DNA from: Defluviicoccus sp.
GTDB taxonomy: Bacteria > Pseudomonadota > Alphaproteobacteria > MPNO01
DNA: 64,000 bases
Direction of reading: 5' to 3'
Assembly (NCBI GenBank): GCA_022823775.1
Contig: JAJEHI010000048.1
Span: 42,267-106,266 of the forward strand
Shown here in pieces: positions 1 to 23,346 of the stretch. A program made the translations under genes and the position numbers. Below the pieces are notes generated by a model, which did not search any database, was not told the origin of the DNA, and worked only from the letters and a program-made list of their open reading frames with translations. Position 1 is the first letter of the stretch, and every line of letters starts with the position of its first letter.

Positions 1-403
1 CCGTGCCGCCGCTCGCCACCAGAAGGCAGGGAAGCTCCGCGGCGGAATCGGCATGCGCGATGCTGCCGCCGACAGTCCCCCGGTTGCGGATCGCGATATG
101 GGCGACGTTGTCGAGCACTTCGCCGATCAGCGGGTTGGCCGCGTTGGCCGCCCCATGGGCCTCGAGCTCGCGGTGCCGCGTCATCGCGCCGACGCGGATC
201 GAGCCGTTCTCGACCGCGATCCCGCGCAGCGACTCGATCTTTCCCAGGTCGACCAGCCGGCCCGGGGTCGAGAGGCGGAAATTCATCGTCGGGATCAGGC
301 TCTGCCCACCGGCGAGAGGACGCGCGGTCTCGTCCCCGGCGAGCGCCGCCACCGCCGCCTCGACGGTCTCCGGCGCGACGTAATCGAACAGCGCAGGCTT
401 CAC
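1..403 (-). CDS. FAD-binding subunit of a molybdopterin-dependent hydroxylase (CoxM / xanthine dehydrogenase family); only the N-terminal ~134 codons lie in the window
   Basis: Manual minus-strand translation gives VKPALFDYVAPETVEAAVAALAGDETARPLAGGQSLIPTMNFRL...AIRNRGTVGGSIAHADSAAELPCLLVASGGT. The FDYxxPxT N-terminus and the RNRGTxGGSxxHADPAA region are typical of CoxM-family FAD subunits. The GTG start at 403 overlaps the hyuB stop (GTGA). It is absent from the ORF track because its stop lies beyond the window edge. Confidence 0.7.
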   Translation of the reverse strand, partial: MKPALFDYVAPETVEAAVAALAGDETARPLAGGQSLIPTMNFRLSTPGRLVDLGKIESLRGIAVENGSIRVGAMTRHRELEAHGAANAANPLIGEVLDNVAHIAIRNRGTVGGSIAHADSAAELPCLLVASGGT

Positions 404-2310
404 TCCGCCGCCTCCGCCGCGGTCTCGGCCCACCAGCCGGCGTCGGGATCCTGCCAGCCCTCGGGCCAGTCGAGCCCGCCGCCGGCGCGCGCGGCCTCGA
501 CATAGGGGCCCCGGTCGAACATCGGCAGCGCGCCCCGCTTCGCGCGAAGCCGCGCCCGGCGCGCGTCGGTCGCCGCGCGATCGACCGCGGCCCGCGGCCC
601 GTCCCGCTGCAGGACGACGCCGTATTCCTCCTCGGCGGATTGCCGGGAAACCAGGCCGCATTCGACATCGTAGGCGACCAGACTGGGCTCGCGCAGCAGG
701 GGATCGCCCCAGCCGCCTCCCCCGGTGGTCTGGATGCGGACGGTGGCGCCCGCCGGCACCTCGATATTGTCGGCCATGCCGGCGACCTCGCGAAGCTCGC
801 CCGGTTCGTCCTCGATCGCGATCCGGTAGGTCGAGCCGGGCTTGCCGCCGTTGACGCCGTAGGTGTTGACCAGCGCGCGGTCGGCGTTCGACAGCAGCCG
901 GCAGGGTTGCAGCGCGCGGATGCGCTTGTCGTAGCCGAACCCGCCGCGCCGGAAGCCCGCTCCGCCGGAATCGCTGGCAAGCCCGAGCTTTTCGACCAGC
1001 ACCGGATAGCGGGTCTCGGAGAACTCGGCCGGCAGGTTGCGCGAGTTGGGAACGATGTGGACCACGTCCGAACCGTCCGCCCAGGGACGGCCGGGACCTC
1101 CGCCCCCCAGCACCTCGCGAAACAGGAAGAAATCCTCGTTCGAGGCGCCGCCGTGGAGTCCCCAGATACGGATCGTCTCGTGATCGGCCGGCATCTGCCC
1201 GCCCGTCGCCTTGGAGAGCAGCGCCGCGAAAATTCCGAGCGAGCGCAGCAGGATGAAGAACCGCATCCCCGTCGCCTTGCCGAAATTGGGCGTGACCAGC
1301 GTGCCTTTCTCCGGGAATTTCACGTCGATCACGTCGAGGACGCCCTCGTTCATGTCGATCTCGGCCGCACGCTCGGGCGAGGACGCGAGAGACCGCAGAA
1401 CCGGGCCCATCCATTTGCGGACGAATTTGCCGTCGGAATAGTCGATCGCCCAGTTGATCGGGCCCTTGGCCTCCTTGCTGGTGCCGGTGAAGTCGAGCAG
1501 GATCCTGTCGGCGGTCTTGGTCATGGTGACGCGCATCGCGTGCAGCCGGGGCGCATCGACGCCGTCGTTCTCGATATAGTCCTCCCAGGTGTAGACGCCG
1601 TCCTCGATCCTGGGCAGAAGTTCGCGCCGGATCGCCTCGGCGCAGTTCTCGATCATCGCGTCGAACGCCGCCTCGAGCGTATCGGCGCCGTAGCGCTCGG
1701 CGAGCGCCACCACCCGCCTCGAGCCCAGCATGGCGGCGCCGATCTCGGCGTCGAGGTCGCCGCGCAGATGCTCCGACAGGCGGGAGTTGCGCTCGATGAT
1801 GCGGAACGCCGCCTCGTTGACCTTGCCGCGTTCGTAGAGCTTGATCGGCGGGATCACCAGCCCCTCGGTCCACATGTCTTCGGCATGCACGGGCAGGCTT
1901 CCCGGCACCGAGCCGCCGACATCGTCGTGGTGGCCGAAGACCTGGGAGAAGCCGATCAGACGGCCGTCGTGGAAGATCGGCAGGGTCGAGCAGAGGTCGG
2001 GGATGTGGCCGATGCCGCCCGAGGAGTTGTAGGGGTCGTTCCAGAAGAACACGTCGCCCGGCTCGATGTCGTCCTCCCCGAAATACTCGAACACCGGTTC
2101 GACCAGCGCCGAGTAGGAGCGCCCGGTGAGCTTGCGGCCCCTGGCGTCGAACAGGGCGACCCGGTAGTCGTGCTGGTCGCGGATCATCGGGGAACGCGAG
2201 GTGCGTTCGACGGCGGCCTCGATCTCAAGTTCGGCCGACCGGATGGTGCCGGTAATGATCTCGAGTTCCACCGGCCCGAGCCGCCGAGCCTCGTCAGAGG
2301 GCTTGCTCAT
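400..2310 (-). CDS. hyuB: Hydantoinase B / 5-oxoprolinase family protein (HyuB-like)
   Basis: The track ORF 400..3285 carries a ~320-aa arginine-rich read-through in front of the real start MSKPSDEARRLGPVELEIITG at 2310. The body matches the hydantoinase_B family (GGGGWGDP, HIVPNSRNLPAEF). Its ATG overlaps the hyuA stop (ATGA). Confidence 0.85.
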   Translation of the reverse strand: MSKPSDEARRLGPVELEIITGTIRSAELEIEAAVERTSRSPMIRDQHDYRVALFDARGRKLTGRSYSALVEPVFEYFGEDDIEPGDVFFWNDPYNSSGGIGHIPDLCSTLPIFHDGRLIGFSQVFGHHDDVGGSVPGSLPVHAEDMWTEGLVIPPIKLYERGKVNEAAFRIIERNSRLSEHLRGDLDAEIGAAMLGSRRVVALAERYGADTLEAAFDAMIENCAEAIRRELLPRIEDGVYTWEDYIENDGVDAPRLHAMRVTMTKTADRILLDFTGTSKEAKGPINWAIDYSDGKFVRKWMGPVLRSLASSPERAAEIDMNEGVLDVIDVKFPEKGTLVTPNFGKATGMRFFILLRSLGIFAALLSKATGGQMPADHETIRIWGLHGGASNEDFFLFREVLGGGGPGRPWADGSDVVHIVPNSRNLPAEFSETRYPVLVEKLGLASDSGGAGFRRGGFGYDKRIRALQPCRLLSNADRALVNTYGVNGGKPGSTYRIAIEDEPGELREVAGMADNIEVPAGATVRIQTTGGGGWGDPLLREPSLVAYDVECGLVSRQSAEEEYGVVLQRDGPRAAVDRAATDARRARLRAKRGALPMFDRGPYVEAARAGGGLDWPEGWQDPDAGWWAETAAEAAE

Positions 2311-4358
2311 GAGGATTTCTCCAGGATGAGGTTGCCGTAGCGGTCGACGGTCGACCGCCAGCTCTCCGGCACGACGGTCGTCGACCCGTATTCCTCCACG
2401 ATCGCCGGCCCGGTCACCGACGCGCCGACGCCGAGGTCGCGCCGGCGCCAGATGCCGCACTCTATCCAGCCGCCGTCGCGCCAGTAAACCCGGCGGGACG
2501 CGACGGGAGCGGCCCCTCCGCCGCCGGATTCGAGAGGTCGGATTCCCGGCCGGTGCACGCGCCCAACCGCCTGGACCCTGAGGCTCACCACCTCGACATC
2601 CTGGCGGCCCTCGTAATGGAAGCCGAAGGTGCTCTCGTGCACCCGGTGGAAGTCGCGCCACATGGTCGCTACCGCATCGCCGCCGACGGTGCCGGGCGGA
2701 ACCGGTACCGGTACCTCGTGACCCTCGCCCACATAGCGCATGTCGGCGCTGCGGAACAGGTCGATGGCCTCGCGCGCGACGCCCTCGGCCGCGATCTCGT
2801 TCCTGCCGGCATCCTCCAGCGCGGACCAGACGGCTTCGAGCTCGCCCGCGTCGTGCGACGACTGCTGGCGCACGCAGGTCCGGACGTAGTCGCGCTTGAC
2901 GTCGGACACGTGAAGCCCGAAGGCGGACAGGTTTCCCGGGTTGGGCGGCACCATGGCGGTGGCGATCCCGAGGAAATCGGCGACCTCGGCGGCGAACAGC
3001 CCGCCGGCGCCGCCGAAGGCGACCATCGCGTAATCGCCCGGATCGAGGCCGCGCGTGGTGGTGACCCGCCGGATGCCGTGTACCTGGTTGGCCGACGCGA
3101 TCTCCAGCACGCCGGCCGCGGCTTCCTCCGCCGGGATTTCGAGCTCGCGGCCGAGCTCCTCGTATGCGGCCCGGGCCGCGCCGGCATCGAGCTTCAGCCC
3201 GCCGCCGATCAGCGCCTCCGGCAGTCGCCCCAGCGCGAGCCCGGCATCGGTCACCGTCGGTTCGGTGCCGCCGCGGCCATAGCATATCGGCCCCGGATCG
3301 GCGCCGGCGCTCCGCGGTCCCACCTTCAGCGCCCCGTAGTCGTCGATCCAGGCGAGCGACCCGCCGCCGGTCCCCACCGTCTCGATATCCAGCATCGGCG
3401 ACTTGACGGGGTAGTTCTCGATCGTCGCGTGGCTCGTGAGCTGGGGCGTCAGGTTCTGGACCAGGGACACGTCGGTCGACGTGCCGCCGACGTCGAGGGT
3501 GAGCACGTTCCGGTAGTCGGCCAGCCGCGCCATGTGCGTCGCGCCGAGCACACCGCCGGCGGGGCCGGAAACCAGCATCGTCACCGGCTTCTCGGCCGCC
3601 TTGGCGCTGGTCACGATGCCGCCGTTCGACTGCATGATGAGGAACGGCACCGGGCCCGAACGCTCACGGATGCTGCGCTCCGCGTGGCCGAGATAGGTCT
3701 TGCAATAGGGCTTCACCATGACGTCGATCAGGGTCGTCATGGCGCGCTCGTATTCGCGGTATTCCGGAAGCACGACCGAGGAAAGCGAGACGTGGATCTC
3801 CGGGTGCCGTTCGGCCACCAGTTCGCCGACCCGGTTCTCGTGCGCCGGGTTGGCGTAGGAGTGGAGCAGGCAGACGGCGAGGCGGTTTACCCCGAGCGCG
3901 GCCAGCTCGTCCGCCGCGCGGACGACGCTGTCTTCCTCGAGCGGCGCCAGCTCCGAACCGTCGTGGCGTATGCGCCCAGTCACCTCGCGCACCAGATGCA
4001 GGGGCACGAGGCGTTTCGGCTTCACCCAGAAGAACGAGTTGCCGTAACCGTCCGGGACCGACTGGCGCGCGATCTCGATAAGGTGCCGGAAGCCGCTGGT
4101 GACAAGCAGTCCGAGGCCCTCGAACTTGTGCTCCAGCACGGCGTTGGTCGCCGTCGTCGTGCCGTGCAGGATCTGGCCGATTTCGGTCCGCGCGACACCT
4201 GCCGCGTCCAGCACCTCGTCGATGCCGTTCAGCAGCCCGAGGCTCGGATCGGCCGGCGTGCTCGGGGTCTTGATCGCGAACTGGTCGCCCGTTTCCTCGT
4301 CGAGCGCGATCACGTCCGTGAAGGTGCCGCCGGTGTCGATGGCTATGCGGAGCGACAT
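2307..4358 (-). CDS. hyuA: Hydantoinase A / N-methylhydantoinase A family protein (HyuA-like)
   Basis: The 683-aa ORF starts MSLRIAIDTGGTFTDVIALDEETG, the typical hydantoinase_A N-terminus, and has the GGTSTDVSL ATP-binding motif. It is translationally coupled to hyuB. Confidence 0.85.
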   Translation of the reverse strand: MSLRIAIDTGGTFTDVIALDEETGDQFAIKTPSTPADPSLGLLNGIDEVLDAAGVARTEIGQILHGTTTATNAVLEHKFEGLGLLVTSGFRHLIEIARQSVPDGYGNSFFWVKPKRLVPLHLVREVTGRIRHDGSELAPLEEDSVVRAADELAALGVNRLAVCLLHSYANPAHENRVGELVAERHPEIHVSLSSVVLPEYREYERAMTTLIDVMVKPYCKTYLGHAERSIRERSGPVPFLIMQSNGGIVTSAKAAEKPVTMLVSGPAGGVLGATHMARLADYRNVLTLDVGGTSTDVSLVQNLTPQLTSHATIENYPVKSPMLDIETVGTGGGSLAWIDDYGALKVGPRSAGADPGPICYGRGGTEPTVTDAGLALGRLPEALIGGGLKLDAGAARAAYEELGRELEIPAEEAAAGVLEIASANQVHGIRRVTTTRGLDPGDYAMVAFGGAGGLFAAEVADFLGIATAMVPPNPGNLSAFGLHVSDVKRDYVRTCVRQQSSHDAGELEAVWSALEDAGRNEIAAEGVAREAIDLFRSADMRYVGEGHEVPVPVPPGTVGGDAVATMWRDFHRVHESTFGFHYEGRQDVEVVSLRVQAVGRVHRPGIRPLESGGGGAAPVASRRVYWRDGGWIECGIWRRRDLGVGASVTGPAIVEEYGSTTVVPESWRSTVDRYGNLILEKSS

Positions 4359-4406
4359 ATTTTATCTGCTATTTCAATACTCTATCCATCGCCCGCCACG
4401 ATATTG

Positions 4407-5132
4407 TCATGCGCCCACCGGGTCAATCGCACACGTCTCCTCGGGCGCGCCGGTTGCGGTCTGGTCCTCCCATTCCGCGAGCAGGTCCGCGCTGTCCATC
4501 ACCAGCCCCATGTGGATCGACACCATCTTGAGCGCCGCGTCCTCCATCTCGTCGTTGGTGCCCCGAACCAGATCGCGCAGCACGACGACGCGGTAGTCGC
4601 GGTTGCTGGCATCGAAAGCGGCGTTCAGCACGCAGCAATCGGTGAATCCGCCGTTCAGCACGACCGTCCGGATGCCCATGTTGCGCAGCAGGAAGTCGAG
4701 ATCGGTCGGATAGAAGACCGACAGCCGCTTCTTGGTCTCGACGATCTGGTCGCCGGGCTTGACCCGGGTCTCGAACTCGGTCCAGCGGCTGCCCTCGATC
4801 GCGTGGGAGTCAGCATTCGGTATGTCGCCCACATAGAGCGGGAAGACCTGCCGCCATGCCGAACGCAGCCCGTTGACGTCATCGACGCCGCCTTTCCTCA
4901 GCACCGTCCTGACATGGACGACCGGAATGCCGAGTCGGCGCGCCTCGTCGTGGAAAATGTCGATCGGCGCGACGATCTCGCGGGCGCGCGGCGCGGGGCA
5001 GGGGCAATCCGGCGTGTCGGCGAGGTGGCCCCGATGCATGTCGATCGACACCACCGCCGACTTGCCGCGATCGGCATAAAGCTCGAACCCGTCCGGCAGG
5101 ACGCGGCGTTCGCCGTAGACGTAAGCCTGCAT
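4407..5132 (-). CDS. Isochorismatase-family cysteine hydrolase
   Basis: 241 aa. The family fold shows in VVSIDMHRG...IRTVVLNGGFTDCCVLNAAFDASNRDYRVVVLRD, with the catalytic Cys in TDCCV. Confidence 0.8.
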   Translation of the reverse strand: MQAYVYGERRVLPDGFELYADRGKSAVVSIDMHRGHLADTPDCPCPAPRAREIVAPIDIFHDEARRLGIPVVHVRTVLRKGGVDDVNGLRSAWRQVFPLYVGDIPNADSHAIEGSRWTEFETRVKPGDQIVETKKRLSVFYPTDLDFLLRNMGIRTVVLNGGFTDCCVLNAAFDASNRDYRVVVLRDLVRGTNDEMEDAALKMVSIHMGLVMDSADLLAEWEDQTATGAPEETCAIDPVGA

Positions 5133-5145
5133 ATCCGCCCCCTCG

Positions 5146-6507
5146 TCAGTGTTCGCCGCCGTTCTCGCTTTCGGCGTAAGCGGCGATCAGGCGTCGGATA
5201 CGCTCGTCGCGGTCGGCGGCGTCCTGGTGCGCGCCCTCGACGTTGATATCGGTGATCCGCTCGCCCGCCCGGCGAAGCAGCACGTCGTCGCTGCCGTTCC
5301 CGTCCGCCGGGATGCGTACCACCGTGTCGTGGCAATAGGTCGGAATCCGGCCGTCGGCGCGGAAACGCGGCGCTTTCGGATCGCCGCCCGAGGCCACCCG
5401 GCGGATCTCGGCCCTCAGCAGCTTGCGCAGCATCAGGACGCCCTTGTCGGTGGCGGTCATGTGCTCCAGCGCATGGACCGCGATCGGCCGCTGGCTGGTC
5501 TGGGCGTCGAAATCGCCCGGGATGCGCTGGCGGTCCTCGTAGCTCCTGGCGCCGCTCTGGCCGAAGAAGTCGACGCGCTCCGGACCGCACTGGCTCTCGT
5601 CCGCGTTGTTCCCAGGATCGCCGTCGGGGTGGAAATGCCGCCAGCCGATGATACGGCATGTCCGGTTGTCGACCGGCGTGGTCCAGCGCGTGATGCCGGT
5701 CCGCATGTAGAGTTTGGGCTCCTGCCCGTCCTCCCAGATATGCCCGACCTGGGCGATGTTGCCGAAGACGATGTCGTTCGAGCGCACCCAGACGTTGTCG
5801 CCCCAGCGCCGCGTGGTGATGTAGATCATGCCCGTTGGGGTCTCGCGGAACTCGGTGACCGGAAGCTCGCCCCAGGCGTCGGCGAACTGGGAGAAGCTGA
5901 TCCGCGTATGCAGGAACACCGCATGCGCCGGGTCCATCACGTTTTCCTGCACCTGGAGCCAGTTGCAGGGGTAGGTGATGTAGTAGGGCACCAGCCGGTC
6001 ATCCGGCATGGCCAGCGTGTCGTAAGGCGCGAAGTCCGAGCGTTTGTCGGGCGGTCCCATATAGGCGAACACCAGACCGTTGTGCTCCTCGACCGGGTAG
6101 GCGCCGTGATAGAGCCGGTCCTTGAGCGTGCTCGACGGGGGTTCGCCCGGCGTCTCCAGAATCCGGCCGTCCGGCGCGAACAGCCAACTGTGATAACAGC
6201 AGCGAAGGCCGCCGAGCTCGACGACGCCGTATTCGAGCGAGGTTCCGCGATGGCTGCAATGGAGGTCGAGCAGCCCCCATTCGCCGGCGCGACTCCGGAA
6301 CAGCACCAGGTCCTCGCCGAACATGCGCACCTTGAGCGGAAGTTCTCCGACCTCCGAGGCGATGGCGACGGGTTGCCAGAAGCGCCGCAGGTACTCGCCG
6401 CAGGGGGAACCGCGCTCGACATGAGTCAACTCGGTGTCCTCTTGCGGCGTCGGCGGGTTGTGATAGGCGCCATAGGGGGTGCGCAGAAAATGCTTCTGCC
6501 CGGCCAT
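5146..6507 (-). CDS. Aromatic-ring-hydroxylating (Rieske non-haem iron) oxygenase alpha subunit
   Basis: Rieske motif CSHRGTSLEYG...CCYHSWLF; mononuclear-iron region DPAHAVFLHT. Real start MAGQKHFLRTPYGAYHNPP at 6507; the track ORF 5146..6879 includes an upstream read-through. No beta-subunit gene is adjacent. Confidence 0.8.
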   Translation of the reverse strand: MAGQKHFLRTPYGAYHNPPTPQEDTELTHVERGSPCGEYLRRFWQPVAIASEVGELPLKVRMFGEDLVLFRSRAGEWGLLDLHCSHRGTSLEYGVVELGGLRCCYHSWLFAPDGRILETPGEPPSSTLKDRLYHGAYPVEEHNGLVFAYMGPPDKRSDFAPYDTLAMPDDRLVPYYITYPCNWLQVQENVMDPAHAVFLHTRISFSQFADAWGELPVTEFRETPTGMIYITTRRWGDNVWVRSNDIVFGNIAQVGHIWEDGQEPKLYMRTGITRWTTPVDNRTCRIIGWRHFHPDGDPGNNADESQCGPERVDFFGQSGARSYEDRQRIPGDFDAQTSQRPIAVHALEHMTATDKGVLMLRKLLRAEIRRVASGGDPKAPRFRADGRIPTYCHDTVVRIPADGNGSDDVLLRRAGERITDINVEGAHQDAADRDERIRRLIAAYAESENGGEH

Positions 6508-6634
6508 CCGTCGTCTTCCTCCGCAGTGGCTCGGTCCGATGCTACGGCGCGAACGGGCGCGCGGAAACGATAAATTGCCGGCCCGTGGACGCGCTGTTAG
6601 CGTTCGCGCGGCGCGGCGGGGTGTGCGAGGTGGA

Positions 6635-7792
6635 ATGGAGGGCAGGAGGATTCGGTTCGGCACCTTCCTCGCGCCGTTCCATTCGGTCCACGAGAATCCG
6701 ACGCTCGCGTTCGACCGCGATCTCGCGCTGGTGGAGCATCTCGACCGGCTCGGTTTCGACGAGGTCTGGGTAGGCGAGCACCATTCCGGCGGGATGGAGA
6801 TCGTAGCCTCGCCCGAGATCTTCATCGCCGCGGCCGCGGAACGAACCCGGCGGATCGGGCTCGGAACGGGCGTGGTCACGCTCCCCTATCACCACCCGTT
6901 CCTGGTCGCCGAGCGTATCAACCAGCTGGATCATCAGACCAAGGGGCGGACGATGTTCGGCGTCGGCGCCGGCGCGCTGCCCTACGACGCGGACATGCTG
7001 GGGATCGACGTAGCCCGGATCCGCGACATGATGACCGAGGCCCTTGATGTCATCGTTCCGCTGCTCGACGGCGAGACGGTGAGCCGCAGGACCGACTGGT
7101 TCGAGCTCCGCGAGGCCCGGCTACAACTCGCTCCTTTCACCCGCCCGCGCGTCGAGCTCGCGGTTCCGTCGGTGGTCTCTCCGTCCGGGCCCCGCGCGGC
7201 CGGCAAGTACGGCATGAGCCTGCTGTCCACCGCCGCCACGACCCGGGCCGCGTTCGAGGCCCTGCCGGAGACATGGGAGATCTGCGCCGACGAGGCGAAG
7301 GCGCACGGCCGGCACGTGGACCGCGCGCGCTGGCGGCTGGTGGGGCCCGTCCACATCGCCGAAACCCGCGAGCGGGCGCGCGCCAATGTCCGTTTCGGGA
7401 TCCAGGAATGGCTCCATTACTTCGCCTATGTCGGCCATCTGCCGCTCGACGCCACCGGCGAGGGCGACGTCGAGTCCGACATCGACGCGCTGATCGAGTC
7501 GAAGATAGCAACGATCGGCACGCCGGACGACCTGATCGCCCAGATCGAGCGGCTGGAGCGCCAGTCGGGCGTCTTCGGCGTCTTCCTCGACATGGCGCAT
7601 AACTGGGCCGACTTCGCCGAGACCAGGCGCAGCTACGAGCTCATCGCCCGCTACGTCATGCCCCGCTTCGACGGCCGCGCCGGCCGGCAGGAAGAAGCCT
7701 ATCGCCGGGCGATGGAGAAAAAACCGGAACTCGCGGAACGGCGCCAGGCCGGCATCGACAAGGCGATCCGCGACCTCAACCCTCGAACGTGA
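6635..7792 (+). CDS. LLM-class (luciferase-like) flavin-dependent monooxygenase/oxidoreductase
   Basis: MEGRRIRFGTFLAPFHSVHENPTLAFDRDLALVEHLDRLGFDEVWVGEHH is a typical LLM N-terminus. Transcribed divergently from the Rieske operon. Confidence 0.75.
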   Translation: MEGRRIRFGTFLAPFHSVHENPTLAFDRDLALVEHLDRLGFDEVWVGEHHSGGMEIVASPEIFIAAAAERTRRIGLGTGVVTLPYHHPFLVAERINQLDHQTKGRTMFGVGAGALPYDADMLGIDVARIRDMMTEALDVIVPLLDGETVSRRTDWFELREARLQLAPFTRPRVELAVPSVVSPSGPRAAGKYGMSLLSTAATTRAAFEALPETWEICADEAKAHGRHVDRARWRLVGPVHIAETRERARANVRFGIQEWLHYFAYVGHLPLDATGEGDVESDIDALIESKIATIGTPDDLIAQIERLERQSGVFGVFLDMAHNWADFAETRRSYELIARYVMPRFDGRAGRQEEAYRRAMEKKPELAERRQAGIDKAIRDLNPRT

Positions 7793-8648
7793 TCTCCGCC
7801 GACTGGGCGATGCCGCCTGCGGGGGTGAGGGCCCACAGCCGGCCTTCGCCTTCGCCCGGGCCGGGCGCGCCCGCGACGGTGAACGGCGTCCCGTCGAACA
7901 GCGGCGCGAGCGCGCGCACCGCGTAGGTCCTGAGCGTCGCCTCGGGCCGCGAACGGCGGAACAGGTCGAGGAGCAGCGTCGTGATCAGGTTGCCGTGGAC
8001 CAGCAGGCCCGGATAGCCCTCGACCCCGGTCACGTAGTCGCGGTCGTAGTGAATCCGATGGCTGTTCATGGTCAGCGCCGAATAGCGGAACAGCAATACG
8101 GTGGTCGGCTCGATCTCGCGCGACCAGACCTTTTCGACTTCCGGCGCTTCGCGCGGCGTCGGCGCATTGGCCGCGCCGCCCGGATCGGCTTCGCGATAGA
8201 CGGTGGTGTGCTCCTCGTGGGTCGCGAGCCCGTCCTCGCCGAAGATCTCGTGGCGCACGGTCACGAAGCAGAGCGTTCCCGATCTGCCGCTCTTCGGCGC
8301 CACGTCCGTGATCGTGGAGACCCGCCGCGCCGTCTCGCCGACCCGGAGCGGCCGGTCGAAGCGCATCCGAACCCCGGCCCACATGCGGCGCGGCAACGGT
8401 ACCGGCGGCATGAAGCCGCCCTTGGCCTTGTGGCCGTCCGGCCCGGTCTCGCAAAGCTTCACGACCTCCGGGAAATAGTACCAGTGCCAGCCCGGGGGGA
8501 TCGGGTCGCCTTCCCTCAGCGGCGGATCGTCGCGGTCGAAGGTGGCGGCGAGGATGTCGGCCGGAGCGGCGGTGATCGGCCCGGTCGCGGTCTCGCTCCG
8601 CCCGATCCAGTCGCGCGCCCGTTCGAGCGCTTCGTCCGGCGCGTTCAT
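7776..8648 (-). CDS. MaoC-like / FAS1-like (R)-specific enoyl-CoA hydratase (hot-dog fold; mesaconyl-/itaconyl-CoA hydratase-like)
   Basis: Real start MNAPDEALERARDWIG at 8648. The ATG overlaps the CoA-transferase stop (ATGA). The hot-dog hydratase motif region is HRIHYDRDYVTGVEGYPGLLVHG. Confidence 0.7.
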   Translation of the reverse strand: MNAPDEALERARDWIGRSETATGPITAAPADILAATFDRDDPPLREGDPIPPGWHWYYFPEVVKLCETGPDGHKAKGGFMPPVPLPRRMWAGVRMRFDRPLRVGETARRVSTITDVAPKSGRSGTLCFVTVRHEIFGEDGLATHEEHTTVYREADPGGAANAPTPREAPEVEKVWSREIEPTTVLLFRYSALTMNSHRIHYDRDYVTGVEGYPGLLVHGNLITTLLLDLFRRSRPEATLRTYAVRALAPLFDGTPFTVAGAPGPGEGEGRLWALTPAGGIAQSAEITFEG

Positions 8649-9766
8649 GCCGCGAACTCCGCGCGGATCGCTTCGGAATCGGCTCCGGCTTCCGGCACCG
8701 GGCCGAGGTCCCGCGAGGCCCTGTCGATCCGCGCCGGCGGCGCGACGATGTCGATCGCTCCGTCCGGAATGCCGATCCCGCTCCGGCGAAGCGCCGGGTG
8801 GCGCCCGAGGCCGCCGACGTCGTTGACCTCCCCGAAGGCGATCTTGGCCTTGCGCAGCCGTTCGATCAGCGCGTCCCGTTCTATCGACGTGAAGACCTCG
8901 CGGACAACGGCATCGAAAGGCTCGCGGTTGTCCAGCCGGGCGATGTTGCTCTCGAAACGCGGATCCTCCGGCAGCCCGGGGCGCTGCAGCACCTCGGCGC
9001 ACAGGCGGACGAACTCGCGCTCGTTCTGGATCGCGATCAGAATCGGCGAGCCTTCTTTGGTCGGGTAGGCGCCGTAGGGGTGGATCGAGGGGTGGTTGAG
9101 CCCGATCCGGGGCGGTCCCTTGCCGTCCGATTCCCAGTGCAGGAGCGGCACCGTCATCCAGTCGGCCATGCCGGAAAACAGCGAGGTCTCGATGGCGCAG
9201 CCCTCGCCGGTTTCGCCGCGCGCGATCACCGCCTCCAGCACCGCCATGTAGCTGTACATGCCGCAGGCGATGTCGCAGACCGACACGCCCACGCGCCCCG
9301 GCCCTTCCGGCCCGCCGGTCACCGAGCAAAGGCCGGATTCCGCCTGGACCAGGAGGTCGTACGCCTTCATGTCGGCATAGGTTCCTTCCGACCCGTAGCC
9401 GCTGATGTCGACCGCGATCAGCCGGGGGTTGCGGCCGCGCAGCTCTTCGGAGGCGAACCCCGCGCGCGCGGCGGCTCCGGGGGCGAGGTTCTGGATGAAC
9501 ACGTCGGCCTTCCCCAGGATACGGTAGAGCAGCGCCCGGTCGTCCGGGTCCTTGATGTCGGCGATAAGCGACTCCTTGCCGCGGTTGAGCCAGACGAAGT
9601 AGGCGCTCTCGCCGCCGGCGAAATTATCGTATTTGCGCGCGAAGTCGCCGCCCTCGCGCTCGATCTTGATGACCCGCGCACCCGCGTCGGCGAGGCGCGA
9701 CGAGCAGTAGGGCGCGGCCACCGCCTGTTCCATCGACACGACGAGCAGGCCGTCCAGCGGCCGCAT
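8645..9766 (-). CDS. CaiB/BaiF family (class III) CoA-transferase
   Basis: MRPLDGLLVVSMEQAVAAPYCSSRLADAGARVIKIE matches the family N-terminus consensus (L.G..V.D....AGP.c...LAD.GA.VIKVE). 373 aa. Confidence 0.8.
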   Translation of the reverse strand: MRPLDGLLVVSMEQAVAAPYCSSRLADAGARVIKIEREGGDFARKYDNFAGGESAYFVWLNRGKESLIADIKDPDDRALLYRILGKADVFIQNLAPGAAARAGFASEELRGRNPRLIAVDISGYGSEGTYADMKAYDLLVQAESGLCSVTGGPEGPGRVGVSVCDIACGMYSYMAVLEAVIARGETGEGCAIETSLFSGMADWMTVPLLHWESDGKGPPRIGLNHPSIHPYGAYPTKEGSPILIAIQNEREFVRLCAEVLQRPGLPEDPRFESNIARLDNREPFDAVVREVFTSIERDALIERLRKAKIAFGEVNDVGGLGRHPALRRSGIGIPDGAIDIVAPPARIDRASRDLGPVPEAGADSEAIRAEFAA

Positions 9767-9780
9767 CGCGTCGCGCCCCG

Positions 9781-10932
9781 TCAATAGGACCTCGGCAGGC
9801 CGAGAACGTGCTCGGCGATGTAGGAGAGCACGAAATTGTTGGAGATCGGCGCGATCCGGTAGAGCCGGGTCTCGCGGAACTTGCGTTCGATGTCGTACTC
9901 CTCGGCGAAGGCGAAGCCGCCATGGGTCTGCATGCACATGTCGGCCGCCTGCCACGACGCCTCGGACGCGAGGTACTTCGCCATGTTGGCCTGCTCGCCG
10001 CAGGGCTCGCCCGCCTCGAACAGCGCCGCCGCCTTCTTCACCATGAGGTCCGCCGCCTCGGTCTTCGCGTAGGCCTCGGCGATCGGGAACTGGACGCCCT
10101 GGTTCTGGCCGATCGGTCGGTCGAACACGCGGCGTTCGCCGGCATACTCGCTCGCCCTGCCGATGAACCAGCGCGCGTCGCCGATGCATTCGGCGGCGAT
10201 CAGGATGCGCTCGGCGTTCATCCCGTCGATGATGTAGCGGAAGCCCTTGCCCTCCTCGCCGACCAGGCTGTCGGCCGGGATGCGCAGATTGTCGAAGAAG
10301 ATCTCGGTCGTGGCGTGATTGATCATCGTGCGGATCGGGCGGATCTCGAGCCCGTTTCCGAGCGCCTTCCGCATGTCGACGATGAAGACGGAAAGCCCCT
10401 CGGTGCGCCGTTCGACCGCTTCCTTCGGCGTGGTGCGGGCGAGCAGGAGCATCAGGTCGGAATGCTCCGCCCGCGAGGTCCAGACCTTCTGACCGTTGAC
10501 GACATAGCCGTCATTGCCGTCCCGCACCGCCGTGGTCCGGAGGCTGAGGGTGTCGGTGCCGCTGGTGGGCTCGGTGACGCCGAAGGCCTGGAGGCGGAGG
10601 TCTCCCGAGGCGATCTTCGGGAGGTATTCGCTCTTCTGCGTCGCGCTGCCGTGCCGGAGCACGGTTCCCATCGTGTACATCTGGGCGTGGCAGGCCGCGC
10701 CGTTGCCGCCCGATTTCTGGATTTCCTCGAGGATCGCGGCCGCCGCCGAGATGCCGAGCCCGCTGCCGCCATATTCCTCCGGGATCAGGACGGAGAGGTA
10801 GCCGTTATCCGTCAGATCCTCGATGAACGCGGTCGGATAGGTCCGGTCGCGGTCGAGTTCGCGCCAGTATTCGCCGGGATAGTTGGCGCACAGCCTGGCG
10901 ACGGCGTCGCGGATTTCCGTGTACTCGTCCAT
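9781..10932 (-). CDS. Acyl-CoA dehydrogenase
   Basis: 383 aa. It has the FGVTEPTSGTD motif and the C-terminal ACAD domain; it is the first gene of the ACAD / CoA-transferase / hydratase operon. Confidence 0.85.
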   Translation of the reverse strand: MDEYTEIRDAVARLCANYPGEYWRELDRDRTYPTAFIEDLTDNGYLSVLIPEEYGGSGLGISAAAAILEEIQKSGGNGAACHAQMYTMGTVLRHGSATQKSEYLPKIASGDLRLQAFGVTEPTSGTDTLSLRTTAVRDGNDGYVVNGQKVWTSRAEHSDLMLLLARTTPKEAVERRTEGLSVFIVDMRKALGNGLEIRPIRTMINHATTEIFFDNLRIPADSLVGEEGKGFRYIIDGMNAERILIAAECIGDARWFIGRASEYAGERRVFDRPIGQNQGVQFPIAEAYAKTEAADLMVKKAAALFEAGEPCGEQANMAKYLASEASWQAADMCMQTHGGFAFAEEYDIERKFRETRLYRIAPISNNFVLSYIAEHVLGLPRSY

Positions 10933-11029
10933 CTGTCCCCGAACTTCCCGACCGGTCCCGCAGTGGCCCCGTTTGTACGCGCATAGTCACGCCGATCCAA
11001 GGGCCACGCCGGCCTTGAGCCTTGGATAT

Positions 11030-11076
11030 ACATTTTAATATGATATTGTTTGTCAATAGATATTGGAGACGAGACG
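11030..11076 (+). promoter_or_regulatory. AT-rich putative promoter/operator region upstream of vapBC
   Basis: An AT-rich stretch, tatacattttaatatgatattgtttgtcaatagatattggagacgagacg, in an otherwise ~70% GC context, immediately upstream of the vapB ATG. TA promoters are typically autoregulated by the antitoxin. Confidence 0.3.
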
Positions 11077-11307
11077 ATGCTGGTATCCAAGTGGGGCAAC
11101 AGCCTCGCCGTCCGGCTGCCGAGGTCGATGGTCGACGGCCTCGATCTGAAGTCCGGAGACCGGCTGGAAATCGTCTCCGCCACGGCGGAACGGGTGGTGC
11201 TCGCGAAGGACCGGCGGCGGGCGCGAGCGGTCGAGCGGATGCGCGCGCGCGCCTTGCCGCTGCCGGCGGACTATGTCTTCGACCGCGATGACGCCAACCT
11301 CCGGTGA
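11077..11307 (+). CDS. vapB: AbrB/MazE/SpoVT-family antitoxin (VapB)
   Basis: MLVSKWGNSLAVRLPRSMVDGLDLKSGDRLEI is a classic SpoVT/AbrB swapped-hairpin antitoxin N-terminus. Its stop overlaps the vapC GTG start. Confidence 0.7.
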   Translation: MLVSKWGNSLAVRLPRSMVDGLDLKSGDRLEIVSATAERVVLAKDRRRARAVERMRARALPLPADYVFDRDDANLR

Positions 11308-11711
11308 GCGCTTTCCTGGACACGAACCTGCTGATCTACGCGCAGTCCGCCGACCCGAAGGGCGAGATCGCGAGACAGGCGATCCTGACCGGCGGAACGA
11401 TCAGCGTTCATGTGGTGAACGAGTTCAGCGCCGTGCTCCGCCGCAAGTTCCGCCTCGAGTGGCACGAGATCGCGGATGCGGTGGACGACGTGCGGGCCGC
11501 GCTGGATCCGGTTCGCCCGGTCGGCATCGACACCTGGACCGCCGCCGTTGCCCTTGCTCGGCAGCACCGTTTCGAATTCTACGACTCGCTGATCCTCGCC
11601 TCGGCGCTCGAAGCCGGCTGCGATACCCTGTTGACCGAGGACATGCAATCCGGCCGCCGCATCGAGGGCCTGACGATCGTCAACCCGTTCGATACCGCTC
11701 CGAAGTCGTAA
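11304..11711 (+). CDS. vapC: PIN-domain ribonuclease toxin (VapC)
   Basis: 135 aa with the conserved acidic PIN residues FLDTN, NEF, FYDS and TEDM. GTG start, 4-bp overlap with vapB. Confidence 0.8.
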   Translation: MSAFLDTNLLIYAQSADPKGEIARQAILTGGTISVHVVNEFSAVLRRKFRLEWHEIADAVDDVRAALDPVRPVGIDTWTAAVALARQHRFEFYDSLILASALEAGCDTLLTEDMQSGRRIEGLTIVNPFDTAPKS

Positions 11712-11770
11712 GCCCCTCCCGAGCCCGCCCGTCCGCTTGACAGCGCACCCCGCCCCGGGGACCATCCGGC

Positions 11771-12943
11771 ATGCCTATCATCAACCGCATCGCCGAGTTC
11801 CACGAGGAGATGACGGGTTGGCGCCGCGACATTCACGCCCATCCCGAGACCGCCTTCGAGGAGCATCGGACGTCTCAATTCGTCGCCGACCGCCTGACCG
11901 AGTTCGGTATCGAGATCCACCGCGGCCTCGCCGGGACCGGCGTGGTGGGAACGCTGGCCGGCGCTCGCGGGGACGGGCCGTCGATCGGGCTCCGCGCCGA
12001 TCTGGACGCGCTCCATATCGAAGAGAAGAACGACTTCGATCACCGCTCGCAAACGCCCGGAAAGATGCATGCCTGCGGGCATGACGGGCACACGTCGATG
12101 CTGCTGGGCGCCGCCAAGTATCTCGCCGAGACGCGCAATTTCGCCGGCACGGTCCGGTTCATCTTCCAGCCGGCGGAAGAGAACGAGGGCGGCGCGCGGG
12201 TGATGGTCGAGGAGGGTCTGTTCGACAAGTTCCCGATGGAGCAGGTGTTCGGCATGCACAACATGCCGCGGGTCGAGATCGGCGAGATGGCGGTCCGTTC
12301 GGGACCCATGATGGCGGCGTTCGACATCTTCGAGGTCCGGGTCACCGGCCACGGCACCCACGCCGCCGCGCCCCATCTCGGCAGCGACGCCATCGTGGCC
12401 GCGGCCGAGATGGTGACGGCGCTCCAGACCATCCCGAGCCGCGTCGTCGATCCGCAGGAGTCGGTCGTCGTCACCGTCACCCAGATCCACGGCGGCGATA
12501 CCTGGAACGTGATCCCGGAGGACGTGATCCTGCGCGGCACCGTGCGCGCCTTCCTGCCCGAGGTCCAGGAGCTCGCGGAAACCTCGCTCAGGCGCATCGT
12601 CGCCGGGATCGCGGCGACGCACGGGCTCGAGGCAGCGGTCGATTACGAGCGGCGCTACCCGCCCACCATCAACCATGACGCGGAATCGGAACTGGCCGCC
12701 CGCGTCGCCGCCGAGGTGGTTGGCGTGGACAACGTTCATCGCGGCCTCCATCCCAAGATGGCGGCGGAGGATTTCTCCTTCATGCTCAACGAGCGGCCGG
12801 GCTGCTATGTCTGGCTCGGCAACGGCCCTGGCGACGGCGGCTGCCTCCTGCACAACCCGCATTACGATTTCAGGGACGAGGCGCTGCCGATCGGCGCGAG
12901 CTACTGGGCCCGGCTGGTGGAAACCCGCCTCGCGCCGCAGTAG
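11771..12943 (+). CDS. M20D-family amidohydrolase (hippurate hydrolase / N-acyl-amino-acid amidohydrolase-like)
   Basis: 390 aa. It contains the MHACGHDGH metal-binding motif and the PAEE motif typical of M20D peptidases. Confidence 0.85.
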   Translation: MPIINRIAEFHEEMTGWRRDIHAHPETAFEEHRTSQFVADRLTEFGIEIHRGLAGTGVVGTLAGARGDGPSIGLRADLDALHIEEKNDFDHRSQTPGKMHACGHDGHTSMLLGAAKYLAETRNFAGTVRFIFQPAEENEGGARVMVEEGLFDKFPMEQVFGMHNMPRVEIGEMAVRSGPMMAAFDIFEVRVTGHGTHAAAPHLGSDAIVAAAEMVTALQTIPSRVVDPQESVVVTVTQIHGGDTWNVIPEDVILRGTVRAFLPEVQELAETSLRRIVAGIAATHGLEAAVDYERRYPPTINHDAESELAARVAAEVVGVDNVHRGLHPKMAAEDFSFMLNERPGCYVWLGNGPGDGGCLLHNPHYDFRDEALPIGASYWARLVETRLAPQ

Positions 12944-13047: not shown

Positions 13048-13503
13048 ATGGCGAGAGAGAACGCGACGAGGATGGAACGCGGCCTCCCCAGTGACCGGGA
13101 TGCGGCGCTGGCCGGCCGGGCACGCCGTCGGCTGGCGTCATGGATCGAAGGGACGGATCCTGTGCCCGCACGATTCGGTACCGCGGTGGAGCCCGTCGAA
13201 ATTCCCACCTCCGCGATGCGGCTGCTCAAGGAGATCCTGGATCAGATGGCCGACGGCAACGGTGTCGCGCTGTTGCCGATGCACGCCGAACTGACCACGC
13301 GACAGGCGGCCGAACTCCTGCAAGTGTCGCGGACGCATCTTGTACAGTTGCTCGACGCGGGACGGATCCCCTGCCGAAAGGTGGGAGCGCACCGGAGGGT
13401 CCGCCCCGAGGACATCCTCGCCTACCGCAACGCGACCGAGTCCGGTCGCCGCCAGGCGCTCGACGAAATGACGGCCCGCGATCAGGAACTCGGCCTGCAG
13501 TAG
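13048..13503 (+). CDS. Helix-turn-helix (excisionase/MerR-like HTH) DNA-binding protein, putative antitoxin of the downstream PIN gene
   Basis: The HTH region is ELTTRQAAELLQVSRTHLVQLLDAGRIPCRKVG. A PIN gene follows 4 bp downstream, a known HTH-PIN toxin-antitoxin arrangement. Confidence 0.6.
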   Translation: MARENATRMERGLPSDRDAALAGRARRRLASWIEGTDPVPARFGTAVEPVEIPTSAMRLLKEILDQMADGNGVALLPMHAELTTRQAAELLQVSRTHLVQLLDAGRIPCRKVGAHRRVRPEDILAYRNATESGRRQALDEMTARDQELGLQ

Positions 13504-13506
13504 ACG

Positions 13507-14087
13507 ATGGCCGGCCCCACGGCGTTACTCGACGCCAATGTTCTCTATCCGGCCGGCCTTCGTGATTTCCTGCTTCGGTTGGCGGATCGGCGCTTGTATG
13601 CGCCGCTATGGAGCGCCGACATCCATGCGGAATGGATGCGGAATGGATGCGGAACCTCCTCGCCGATCGGCCCCACCTATCCGCCGATACGCTGGAGCGC
13701 ACACGCGCGGCCATGGACTGGCACTTTCCCGCAGCAGTGGTGACGGGATATGCCGCCCTTGCCGAGATGCTCGATCTACCGGACCCTGGCGATCGCCACG
13801 TACTGGCCGCGGCGATACCGGGGCGCGCGGACGTGATCGTGACTTGGAACCTGCGGCACTTCCCTGCCGACCGTCTCGCGTCCAGCGTCCTCGCGGCACG
13901 CAGCCCCGACGCGTTTATCGCGGGTCTGTTCGAGACCGGTCCCGAAGAGGTCGTGGCGGCCGTGCGCGGGCATCGCGCGGCGCTGAGAAACCCGCCGCGC
14001 TCAGCATCGGATCACTTGACCGCCCTCGAACGCGTCGGGCTGGCGAGGACGGCCGCGCTGCTCCGACCGCACGTGGGCGCCATTTGA
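13507..14087 (+). pseudogene. PIN-domain toxin gene disrupted by a +11 bp frameshift
   Basis: Frame 1 (13507..13743) encodes MAGPTALLDANVLYPAGLRDF...ADIHAEWMRN. The sequence continues only in another frame (13608..14087: ...EWMRNLLADRPHLS...HVLAAAIPGRADVIVTWNLRHF). Removing one copy of the duplicated GCGGAATGGAT restores a single ~190-aa PIN ORF. Confidence 0.65.
13617..13638 (+). repeat. Perfect 11-bp tandem duplication (GCGGAATGGAT x2) that frameshifts the PIN gene
   Basis: The sequence atccatGCGGAATGGATGCGGAATGGATgcggaacc is seen directly. 11 = 2 mod 3, which matches the observed frame change. Confidence 0.8.
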
Positions 14088-14278
14088 TCGGCGCGCGCCC
14101 CGTACGCAGAGGTCCAAGGCTGGATAGCCGCGCCCGCGCCCGGTATGTTCGGAATATTCCCACAGGCGACCGGCCGCCGATGTGCGGACCGTTCCGGTAA
14201 AGTGGAACACTGGCACGGACCGGACCTCGATCGGATGCCGGTCTCCGTATCGCGCCCGCGCAACAGGTGACAGGAACG

Positions 14279-17538: not shown

Positions 17539-17541
17539 ACG

Positions 17542-18630
17542 ATGAAGATCGCCGAACTCGACACCCCGGTGCTCCTGGTCGACGCCGACGCCTTCGAACG
17601 CAACGTGGCGCGGATGGCCGAGCTCTGCGCCGATGCCGGTGTCGCCTGCCGGCCGCACGCCAAGGCCCACAAGTCGCCCGAGGTCGCGCGGATCCAGATG
17701 GAGGCGGGCGCCGTCGGGATGTGCTGTGCCAAGCTGGGGGAGGCCGAGGTGATGTCGGCGGCCGGGATCGAGGACCTCCACATCACCACGCCGGTGGTGG
17801 GGGCCTCGAAAATCATGCGCCTGCTCGAGGCCGCCCGGCAGTCGCATGTCTCGGTCGTCGTCGACGACGCGGACAATATCTCGGATCTCGCCGCCGGGGC
17901 GCAAACGGCCGGATTGAGGCTCGACGTGCTGGTCGAGGTCGACGTGGGGCAGGGCCGTTGCGGGGTCCCGCCCGGACCGCGCGCGGCCGAGCTCGCCCGG
18001 CTGATCGACGGCCATCCCTGGCTCCATTTCCGCGGGCTCCAGGCCTATCATGGCCCGATCCAGATGCGGGGAGATGTCGCGGAACGTCGCGCGGGCGCCG
18101 CGGAGGCGCTGGAGAAGGCCGAGCTGTCCGCCCGGCCGATCCGCGAGGCCGGGCTGGAGATCGAGGTGCTGACCGGCGGCGGCACCGGCACTTCCGCTAT
18201 CGACGCCGCGGCCGGCGGGCTCACCGAGCTTCAGCCGGGCTCCTACATCTTCATGGACACCAACTACAGCGCCATCGGGTGGGAGGGCGCGCCGGCGCCG
18301 CCCTTCGAGAACGCGCTCACCCTCCTTGCCGGCGTGCTCAGCAAGCCCGCCCCCGGCCGCGCGATCCTCGATTCCGGCATGAAGGCGATCAGCGGCGACG
18401 GCGGTGCGCCGCGCGCGCCCGGTTATCCCGAGGCGGAATTCCGCTTCGCCGGCGACGAGCACGGCCAGCTTTCCTTCCCCGGCGAGGCGCCGCTCGAGGT
18501 GGGCGACAAGGTGACCCTGCTGCCGAGCCACTGCGACACCACGGTCAACCTCCACGACCGCTTCATCGTTACCCGCGGGGACGAGGTGGAGGGGGTCTGG
18601 GAAATCGCCGCGCGAGGGCGCTCTCAGTAG
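17542..18630 (+). CDS. DSD1-family PLP-dependent enzyme (D-serine dehydratase-like / alanine-racemase N-terminal fold)
   Basis: 362 aa. PLP-lysine context RPHAKAHKSPE; the TPVLLVD start is typical of DSD1 / D-threonine aldolase-like enzymes. Confidence 0.8.
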   Translation: MKIAELDTPVLLVDADAFERNVARMAELCADAGVACRPHAKAHKSPEVARIQMEAGAVGMCCAKLGEAEVMSAAGIEDLHITTPVVGASKIMRLLEAARQSHVSVVVDDADNISDLAAGAQTAGLRLDVLVEVDVGQGRCGVPPGPRAAELARLIDGHPWLHFRGLQAYHGPIQMRGDVAERRAGAAEALEKAELSARPIREAGLEIEVLTGGGTGTSAIDAAAGGLTELQPGSYIFMDTNYSAIGWEGAPAPPFENALTLLAGVLSKPAPGRAILDSGMKAISGDGGAPRAPGYPEAEFRFAGDEHGQLSFPGEAPLEVGDKVTLLPSHCDTTVNLHDRFIVTRGDEVEGVWEIAARGRSQ

Positions 18631-23344: not shown

Positions 23345-23346
23345 CG

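Follow-up and report, generated by a model that had tools for sequence, protein, structure and literature searches.

An eight-gene operon of a Defluviicoccus-like bacterium joins a molybdenum hydroxylase to HyuAB and very probably serves N-heterocycle catabolism

We analysed a window of 64,000 nt from Defluviicoccus sp. (contig JAJEHI010000048.1), whose positions serve as coordinates throughout, and found that the minus-strand gene cluster at its left edge belongs to an operon of eight genes (~10.7 kb) encoding a Rieske oxygenase, an isochorismatase-like hydrolase, HyuA, HyuB, the CoxM, CoxS and CoxL subunits of a molybdenum (Mo) hydroxylase and a creatininase-like protein, in this order. With high confidence, we regard it as a catabolic operon for an N-heterocycle that follows a logic of hydroxylation, ATP-driven ring opening and amide hydrolysis. 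A tightly coupled operon of this kind had been proposed by a previous sequence-only reading, and the proposal was supported by translational coupling, by the Mo hydroxylase subunits and by a conserved core in related genomes. The substrate is more tentative. Gene neighbourhoods suggest a nucleobase-type ring, most likely a pyrimidine (uracil or thymine) degraded through an ATP-dependent variant of the oxidative route from barbiturate to malonate, an assignment in which we place somewhat less than even confidence.

The window has a G+C content of ~69% and its mechanical listing of open reading frames (ORFs) is crowded as a result, but Pfam matches and translations confirmed the five linked minus-strand genes at the positions first read from the sequence. 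The first is the gene of the Rieske oxygenase alpha subunit (5146-6507, 453 aa; PF00355, E = 2.5e-14, with weak LigXa_C and VanA_C matches), followed by those of an isochorismatase-family cysteine amidohydrolase (4407-5132, 241 aa; PF00857, E = 2e-31), the ATP-binding hydantoinase A/oxoprolinase-family subunit HyuA (2307-4358, 683 aa; PF05378, PF01968 and PF19278, best E = 9e-87), the hydantoinase B/oxoprolinase-family subunit HyuB (400-2310, 636 aa; PF02538, E = 3e-133) and the 5' part of a CoxM-like FAD subunit (1-403; PF00941, E = 2.6e-33), which the window edge cuts at codon 134 of 287. The start/stop overlaps noticed earlier, ATGA at HyuA/HyuB and GTGA at HyuB/CoxM, were both confirmed by reading the sequence, and the start codon of CoxM is the GTG within the latter. 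The spacer between the Rieske and isochorismatase-like genes is 13 bp long with a Shine-Dalgarno-like run (GAGGGGG), and that between the isochorismatase-like gene and HyuA is 48 bp long.

To extend the operon beyond the window, we used the ENA metagenome contig ERZ23491513 (scaffold_122, 170.6 kb; L001 below), which encodes exactly the same HyuB protein and is identical to the window, its record positions being the window positions plus 78304. Downstream of HyuB it carries the complete CoxM gene (287 aa, L001 11908-12771), CoxS (178 aa), CoxL (800 aa, L001 13322-15724) and a creatininase-family gene (259 aa) that overlaps CoxL by 4 bases, after which come ccm genes for cytochrome c maturation. 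The coxL and coxS partners, named beforehand as the check on the Mo hydroxylase, therefore lie directly downstream of CoxM. The linkage of the five genes held, whereas their completeness as an operon did not, since CoxS, CoxL and the creatininase-like gene follow past the window edge.

The presumed promoter region of the operon is the 127-bp divergent intergenic region at 6508-6634, in which a motif scan found no consensus promoter. An Rfam search gave no credible riboswitch or other RNA element in 1-12000, and none in 6508-6634. The same promoter-motif scan placed two sigma-70-like hexamer pairs on the minus strand at 4359-4426 (L001 7885-7952), which covers the spacer before HyuA and the 3' end of the isochorismatase-like gene, compared with 0.8 expected in shuffles. 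This hints weakly at an internal, older promoter of the core at its junction with added genes.

A scan with one genome per species returned 171 HyuB relatives, and all locus counts given here cover the best 80 (HyuB identity 70-94%). Counts were made by tblastn, as the GC3-based gene caller misses genes in lower-GC loci; only the count of cytosine-deaminase-like genes comes from clustered gene calls. The 80 loci belong mostly to Alphaproteobacteria and in part to Gammaproteobacteria. Many of the carriers are metagenome-assembled genomes (MAGs) with names suggesting sponge origin. Others are cultured, among them Methylobacterium organophilum, M. dankookense, Methylorubrum zatmanii, Hyphomicrobium sp., Microbaculum marinum and Ferruginivarius sediminum, the strains at L066, L050 and L069 being M. 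organophilum NBRC 15689, Hyphomicrobium sp. NDB2Meth4 and F. sediminum WD2A32. The closest HyuB relatives (91-94%) come from genomes labelled either Defluviicoccus sp. or unclassified Alphaproteobacteria; judged by the names of its relatives, the Defluviicoccus-like lineage may be sponge-associated.

HyuA was found in 75 of the 80 loci, followed by CoxS-type (58), CoxL-type (53), CoxM-type (51) and creatininase-like genes (45). Less constant companions were the binding protein of a Bmp-family ABC transporter (37), CoxG (34), IclR (29), the isochorismatase-like gene (16), a cytosine-deaminase-like amidohydrolase (12), the Rieske gene (10), an amidase (8), malonyl-CoA synthase (MatB, 7), the LLM monooxygenase gene (6) and malonyl-CoA decarboxylase (MCD, 3). 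In 9-10 loci without CoxLMS (L019-type), an XdhA/XdhB pair, accompanied by XdhC, occupies the hydroxylase slot between HyuB and the creatininase-like gene, and these pairs pass the xanthine-dehydrogenase equivalog cut-offs (644 > 467 and 1169 > 850). Allowing for contigs that end inside the cluster, a Mo hydroxylase of either type stands beside HyuAB in about 68 of the 80 loci. HyuAB, the Mo hydroxylase and the creatininase-like protein thus form a unit that is conserved widely among Alphaproteobacteria and also in some Gammaproteobacteria, and the use of two hydroxylase types in one slot fits an enzyme that hydroxylates heterocycles better than one that oxidises CO or aldehydes.

Among the operon proteins, only CoxL reached a curated cut-off of a functionally defined family, passing NF040766 (aerobic carbon-monoxide dehydrogenase large subunit, group 5) with 992.5 bits vs 950; its second-best NCBIfam match was glyceraldehyde dehydrogenase alpha. 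The best NCBIfam matches of CoxM and of CoxS, the 2x[2Fe-2S] subunit, were glyceraldehyde dehydrogenase beta (243 bits, cut-off 350) and gamma (193, cut-off 290). Xanthine dehydrogenase (XdhA/B/C, PucCDE) was rejected as an identity for the three subunits, which scored under the cut-offs (e.g. 366/780, 126/310 and 167/217). The active-site loop of CoxL, PYRGCGRP, aligned with AYRGVG of quinoline 2-oxidoreductase, AYRAPGR of 6-hydroxypseudooxynicotine dehydrogenase and SYRGAGRP of 4zoh, and the loop of CO dehydrogenase (AYRCSFR, within AYxCSFR) could be aligned to it only with an insertion. A form I CO dehydrogenase was rejected because CoxL has no Cys-Ser-Phe-Arg copper-site loop. From these alignments CoxL appears to be a hydroxylase-type enzyme, and the name that NF040766 gives to its clade is doubtful, probably a systematic over-annotation.

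The HyuAB pair, by its family an ATP-dependent cyclic-amide hydrolase, could not be placed in a named subfamily. The best curated matches were NCBIfam caprolactamase alpha for HyuA (533 bits) and caprolactamase beta for HyuB (215 bits), and since both models have a cut-off of 1000, identity with caprolactamase CapAB was rejected. Acetophenone and acetone carboxylases were rejected with 115-286 bits against cut-offs of 1250-1500, and the operon has no gene for a small extra subunit. Curated models for 5-oxoprolinase or N-methylhydantoinase gave no match to HyuAB. In the PDB, HyuB matched the fused N-methylhydantoinase/oxoprolinase-type chain 7hk5 (224 bits over 575 residues) and caprolactamase 6yra (178 bits). 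As the similarity to 7hk5 is at the family level only, there is no sign that HyuAB is an orthologue of a characterised 5-oxoprolinase, an identity that would have undermined the original proposal. The clusters that had been suggested for comparison (caprolactamase, acetophenone carboxylase, nicotinate and caffeine) do not fit, and the gene context points to a nucleobase, most likely a malonate-yielding pyrimidine.

The operon encodes two further hydrolases. The isochorismatase-like protein carries the triad motifs of its family (Asp31, Lys134/135 and Cys167), and its solved relatives were biuret hydrolase and N-carbamoylsarcosine amidases (E = 1e-9 to 1e-12). Biuret hydrolase, RutB and nicotinamidase were each rejected as its identity with scores far under the curated cut-offs (BiuH 58/370, RutB 46/378, nicotinamidase 26/174). 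Its orthologues adjoin HyuAB in the 16 loci counted above, and from its sequence it is a superfamily member of no assignable specificity. The creatininase-like protein scored 109 bits with TIGR04448 (cut-off 235). It keeps Glu34, His36, Asp45, Trp154, His178 and Glu183 (Pseudomonas creatininase numbering), but 34 of 34 orthologues carry Asn-Arg-Pro in place of His120-Tyr121-Glu122, have no Trp174 and show Glu instead of Asp155. We take the metal ligands of creatininase to be Glu34, His36, Asp45, His120 and Glu183, and its substrate residues to be Tyr121, Glu122, Trp154, Asp155 and Trp174. Creatinine amidohydrolase (EC 3.5.2.10) was accordingly rejected, the score being below the cut-off and binding residues being replaced. 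The protein represents a distinct subfamily, which is unlikely to process creatinine as the known enzyme does.

Genes that accompany the core in other genomes gave the main indications of the substrate. The Bmp binding protein has as its closest solved relatives AtzT (6pi5) and Brucella BMP (3s99), both of which bind free nucleobases. The malonyl-CoA synthase scored 755 bits vs a cut-off of 558 and adjoins the creatininase-like gene in all 7 of its loci, and the malonyl-CoA decarboxylase matches PF05292 at 2e-100. In Ferruginivarius sediminum (L069), genes for the Bmp ABC transporter, CoxG, DUF5020, HyuA, HyuB, the creatininase-like protein, MatB, MCD and an amidase are co-directional, with the 3' end of a CoxL-type gene at the locus edge. 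The DUF5020 protein (PF16412; L069 6238-7098, plus strand), encoded between CoxG and HyuA, is possibly an outer-membrane barrel through which the substrate would be taken up. HyuB is directly followed by a cytosine/creatinine-deaminase-like gene in five of the related loci, and in three loci isochorismatase-like and cyclase-family (PF04199) amidohydrolase genes occupy the usual creatininase-like position. Beside the core of three loci we also observed a divergent minus-strand operon with a creatinase-like M24 gene and a second HyuA/HyuB pair (L019 1145-7655, L032 2514-7723 and L033 3-5282). Its HyuB is ~36% identical to that of the window, and in L019 it also includes sarcosine oxidase beta; it is plausibly a true creatine/N-methylhydantoin module, separate from the operon described here.

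We inferred a planar, nucleobase-type substrate from the kind of transporter, from the exchange of the hydroxylase for XdhAB in some loci and from the neighbouring deaminase, and the ring most likely yields malonate because malonyl-CoA synthase and decarboxylase are the only repeatedly attached carbon-handling genes. The oxidative pyrimidine pathway ends in malonate and urea (PMC3758960). In the scheme we propose, the Mo hydroxylase would introduce an oxo group at a C-H position adjacent to a ring nitrogen, converting uracil or thymine at C6 to barbiturate or 5-methylbarbiturate, and cytosine would enter after deamination in genomes with the deaminase. HyuAB would then open the resonance-stabilised cyclic ureide with ATP to give ureidomalonate, in place of an AtzD-type barbiturase. 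No member of the AtzD/barbiturase family was seen in the Pfam annotation of the contig surrounding the operon or of the recurrent neighbours in related loci, and for this reason HyuAB may be a non-homologous replacement of barbiturase. The creatininase-like and/or isochorismatase-like hydrolases (elsewhere the amidase or the cyclase-family enzyme) would convert the linear ureide to malonate together with either urea or NH3 and CO2. The Rieske oxygenase would probably pre-process a substituted, e.g. methylated, form of the substrate, and since the window holds no Rieske reductase, it might take its electrons from the Fe-S/FAD chain of the hydroxylase. In its complete form, with CoxLMS or XdhAB as uracil/thymine dehydrogenase, HyuAB in place of barbiturase and a recruited Rieske oxygenase that extends an ATP-dependent oxidative pyrimidine pathway to modified (e.g. 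methylated) nucleobases, this assignment is possible, though we hold it rather unlikely that every part is right.

Several observations weigh against the pyrimidine scheme. It rests on gene neighbourhoods in other genomes, and a search of the window found no MatB, MCD, Bmp, CoxG, IclR or deaminase gene; even among the 80 loci, MatB and MCD are confined to 7 and 3. The operon has more amidohydrolases (HyuAB, creatininase-like, isochorismatase-like and, elsewhere, an amidase) than the scheme has steps needing them. The role of the Rieske oxygenase in the operon is not explained by the scheme, and the window holds no homologue of a Rieske beta subunit or reductase. CoxL passes a carbon-monoxide dehydrogenase model, sarcosine oxidase and creatinase-like genes in some related loci point to creatinine-type chemistry, and the XdhAB pairs over xanthine-dehydrogenase cut-offs, together with a purine-type binding protein, would also fit a purine.

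The last of these points leads to the alternative that survives best, in which the same three-step logic acts on another N-heterocycle, such as a purine or oxopurine, a pterin, a triazine, a pyridone or a lactam. We consider it unlikely, yet a genuine possibility. XdhA/XdhB pairs over the cut-offs sit in the hydroxylase slot of 9-10 loci, AtzT and Brucella BMP are the nearest solved relatives of the binding protein, and the best curated matches were biuret hydrolase for the isochorismatase-like protein and AtzE/allophanate-hydrolase types for the amidases, with no protein reaching an equivalog cut-off for a known substrate. However, the known purine, pterin, triazine and pyridine routes run without malonate, whereas MatB and MCD are the carbon-processing genes that recur here, and the annotated neighbours included no gene for a ring-cleavage dioxygenase, uricase or allantoinase and none of the AtzD type.

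A five-membered cyclic ureide or amidine, such as creatinine, N-methylhydantoin or an analogue, is a less probable substrate, to which we give little weight. HyuAB would then be an N-methylhydantoinase and the isochorismatase-like protein an N-carbamoylsarcosine amidase, with the creatininase-family enzyme opening creatinine or its analogue. In favour of this, members of the three enzyme families that make up the known creatinine routes stand together in one operon. Among solved structures, HyuB is closest to a chain named N-methylhydantoinase and the isochorismatase-like protein has N-carbamoylsarcosine amidases among its relatives, and the deaminase-like gene that directly follows HyuB in five loci is of a cytosine/creatinine type. 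Genes for sarcosine oxidase beta (731 bits > 529) and for creatinase-like M24 proteins are present in 3-4 related loci. Many carriers have names suggestive of sponge-associated MAGs, and creatinine genes have been reported from sponge microbiomes (PMC6742649). On the other side, the active site of the creatininase-like protein is altered in all 34 orthologues and its score is less than half of the 235 bits needed, while the sarcosine oxidase and creatinase-like genes of L019 and L032 lie in the separate divergent operon, which has its own HyuAB. Creatinine would also leave no role for the Mo hydroxylase, the malonyl-CoA synthase or the decarboxylase.

A mere juxtaposition of unrelated functions, with CoxMSL as a form-II-type CO or aldehyde dehydrogenase for energy, HyuAB as a general lactamase or oxoprolinase, and the Rieske and isochorismatase-like proteins acting on an aromatic amide, is quite improbable, for although CoxL exceeds the NF040766 cut-off (992 > 950) with glyceraldehyde dehydrogenase alpha as its second match, CoxG accompanies the genes in 34 loci and the Rieske family normally resides in a different cluster, four-base overlaps couple HyuA-HyuB-CoxM and CoxL with the creatininase-like gene, the synteny of HyuAB and Mo hydroxylase holds in different orders, even where the type of hydroxylase is exchanged, and the CoxL loop is PYRGCGRP and not AYxCSFR.

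The Rieske oxygenase itself has a history separate from that of the core. We preferred its start at 6507 (453 aa) over a 577-aa ORF on the basis of the gene call on the identical contig and of homologues of 447-470 aa. The protein carries the motifs CxH...CxxH (HCSH...CCYH) and DxxHxxxxH (DPAHAVFLH) and its PF00355 match exceeds the gathering score, which makes it a member of the Rieske non-haem-iron oxygenase alpha subunits. By tblastn its gene stands beside HyuAB in only 10 of the 80 loci, all from the closest relatives. Orthologues with 60-68% identity from Bordetella bronchiseptica, Variovorax, Bradyrhizobium and metagenomes lie in another, widely conserved cluster, with genes for LysR, the Rieske protein, a ~210-aa protein that matches no Pfam family, an ABC transporter of the HAAT type and an AllG-like protein (PF06545), to which the Bradyrhizobium version adds a reductase and ureidoglycolate lyase. 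One copy with 75% identity is isolated beside an insertion sequence (IS) element, and the window contains no AllG-like gene. Because the Rieske gene accompanies HyuAB in the closest relatives only and its orthologues elsewhere belong to a different cluster, it is a lineage-specific addition, a recruit placed ahead of the conserved core in the Defluviicoccus-like lineage and not a member of the conserved system. The protein encoded after the Rieske orthologues (206-220 aa, without Pfam or NCBIfam match) always follows them, as at L082 9421-10059, L084 9403-10041, L085 9343-10005 and L089 11376-11996. It was considered as a divergent isochorismatase and rejected for want of any similarity.

Across the divergent region, on the plus strand, lies the gene of a luciferase-like (LLM) flavin monooxygenase (6635-7792, 385 aa; PF00296, E = 3e-44), so the divergent neighbour described from the sequence is present as reported. 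Its membership of the system is doubtful: it adjoins the Rieske gene in 6 of the 80 loci, it is missing from the close relatives L006, L008 and L011, and no NCBIfam model reaches its cut-off with the protein. An analogy with the Rut pathway, in which LLM would correspond to RutA and the isochorismatase-like protein to RutB, was rejected, as LLM has no RutA match and is not conserved with the operon, and the RutB score is far too low. ACAD, CoA-transferase and MaoC-hydratase genes further upstream were set aside as pathway parts, being conserved among the closest relatives only.

Other parts of the window contain catabolic genes of their own. A second pair of Rieske oxygenase and amidase genes is found at 33467-35878 on the plus strand, encoding a VanA-type oxygenase (346 aa, PF00355 and VanA_C) followed by an amidase-signature enzyme (449 aa, NF005460 583 bits > 447), with no reductase nearby. 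Between catabolic gene blocks, the gene of an M20 amidohydrolase (11771-12943, TIGR01891 375 bits > 154) is flanked by two toxin-antitoxin-like pairs on the plus strand, a MazE-type antitoxin with a PIN protein (11077-11711) and an HTH_17 protein with PIN_3/VapC50_C (~13050-14090). Co-directional plus-strand genes at 14280-18630 encode proteins of the gamma-glutamyltranspeptidase family (528 aa), of Amidohydro_3 (557 aa) and of a D-serine-dehydratase-like/Ala_racemase_N type (362 aa), by their annotation another amide or amino-acid catabolic module. Swings of AT skew in 22000-30000 (+0.285 at 22-24 kb and -0.241 at 28-30 kb) coincide with TRAP transporter DctM genes on opposite strands and are not a separate feature, because the codon composition of membrane proteins explains them.

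Uracil/thymine dehydrogenase activity has been known since the 1950s, and to our knowledge its genes have never been assigned. If the pyrimidine reading is true, genes would be assigned to this activity, a second, ATP-driven way of opening the barbiturate ring would be recognised, and a function would be given to a gene block that well over 100 bacterial species carry, among them cultured members of Methylobacterium, Hyphomicrobium, Microbaculum and Ferruginivarius. It would also correct what is likely a systematic misannotation, that of a CoxL clade named CO dehydrogenase and of a creatininase-family clade unable to bind creatinine in the known way. Should the substrate be another one, the cluster would still define a widespread, uncharacterised N-heterocycle pathway. 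Full-text searches of the literature gave no description of this cluster; a guanidine review uses matching terms in another context. The parts come from known superfamilies and the logic is known, and it is the combination that is a candidate for the uracil/thymine dehydrogenase genes and an ATP-driven analogue of barbiturase.

Each part of the operon has a characterised counterpart from which it differs in some respect. The Rieske protein resembles the phthalate-family alpha-only oxygenases, a comparison group that includes the demethylases NdmA and DdmC, in having a Rieske [2Fe-2S] and a mononuclear-iron motif and no beta subunit, and its best solved match is phthalate dioxygenase 7fjl (160 bits, with the alignment limited to the N-terminal half). 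HyuAB shares with the ATP-dependent lactamase CapAB of Pseudomonas jessenii (6yra) the two-subunit form without a gamma subunit, but the gene context is different, as the operon here contains a Mo hydroxylase and amidohydrolases. The Mo hydroxylase corresponds to the L/M/S enzymes 1t3q, 7dqx, 1n5w and 8uem, with FAD, 2x[2Fe-2S] and Mo-pterin subunits and CoxL matches of 400-447 bits over the full length; in contrast to the form I CO dehydrogenases among them (1n5w and 8uem), which have the CSFR copper-binding loop, CoxL has a hydroxylase-like loop.

At the level of whole pathways, nicotinate and picolinate clusters likewise combine a Mo hydroxylase and an oxygenase with an amidase of the isochorismatase family, but their 2,5-dihydroxypyridine dioxygenase, deformylase, decarboxylase and isomerase are not in the neighbourhood of the operon. 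In those clusters the amidase is the maleamate amidase NicF/PicF and the yield is fumarate, and they have neither HyuAB nor a creatininase-like gene. Creatinine degradation by CrnA, the N-methylhydantoin amidohydrolase HyuAB (EC 3.5.2.14) and N-carbamoylsarcosine amidase employs the same three protein families. However, the creatininase-like protein here is without the creatinine-binding residues and one metal-ligand histidine, the isochorismatase-like protein is remote from N-carbamoylsarcosine amidases (E = 1e-9), and the creatinine pathway has no counterpart of the Mo hydroxylase. The oxidative pyrimidine pathway of Rhodococcus erythropolis JCM 3132 consists of uracil/thymine dehydrogenase (EC 1.17.99.4), barbiturase (EC 3.5.2.1) and ureidomalonase (EC 3.5.1.95) (Soong et al. 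2001/2002, summarised in PMC3758960). The predicted ring hydroxylation, hydrolytic opening of the ureide and hydrolysis of the linear ureide to malonate and urea are alike in both, and orthologous clusters add to the likeness with attached MatB, MCD, cytosine-deaminase-like and amidase genes and a nucleobase-type transporter. Whereas Rhodococcus opens the ring with a barbiturase of the AtzD family, of which none was seen in the annotated neighbourhoods here, the ATP-dependent HyuAB would open it in this operon, and the position of ureidomalonase would be taken by the creatininase-family and isochorismatase-family hydrolases.

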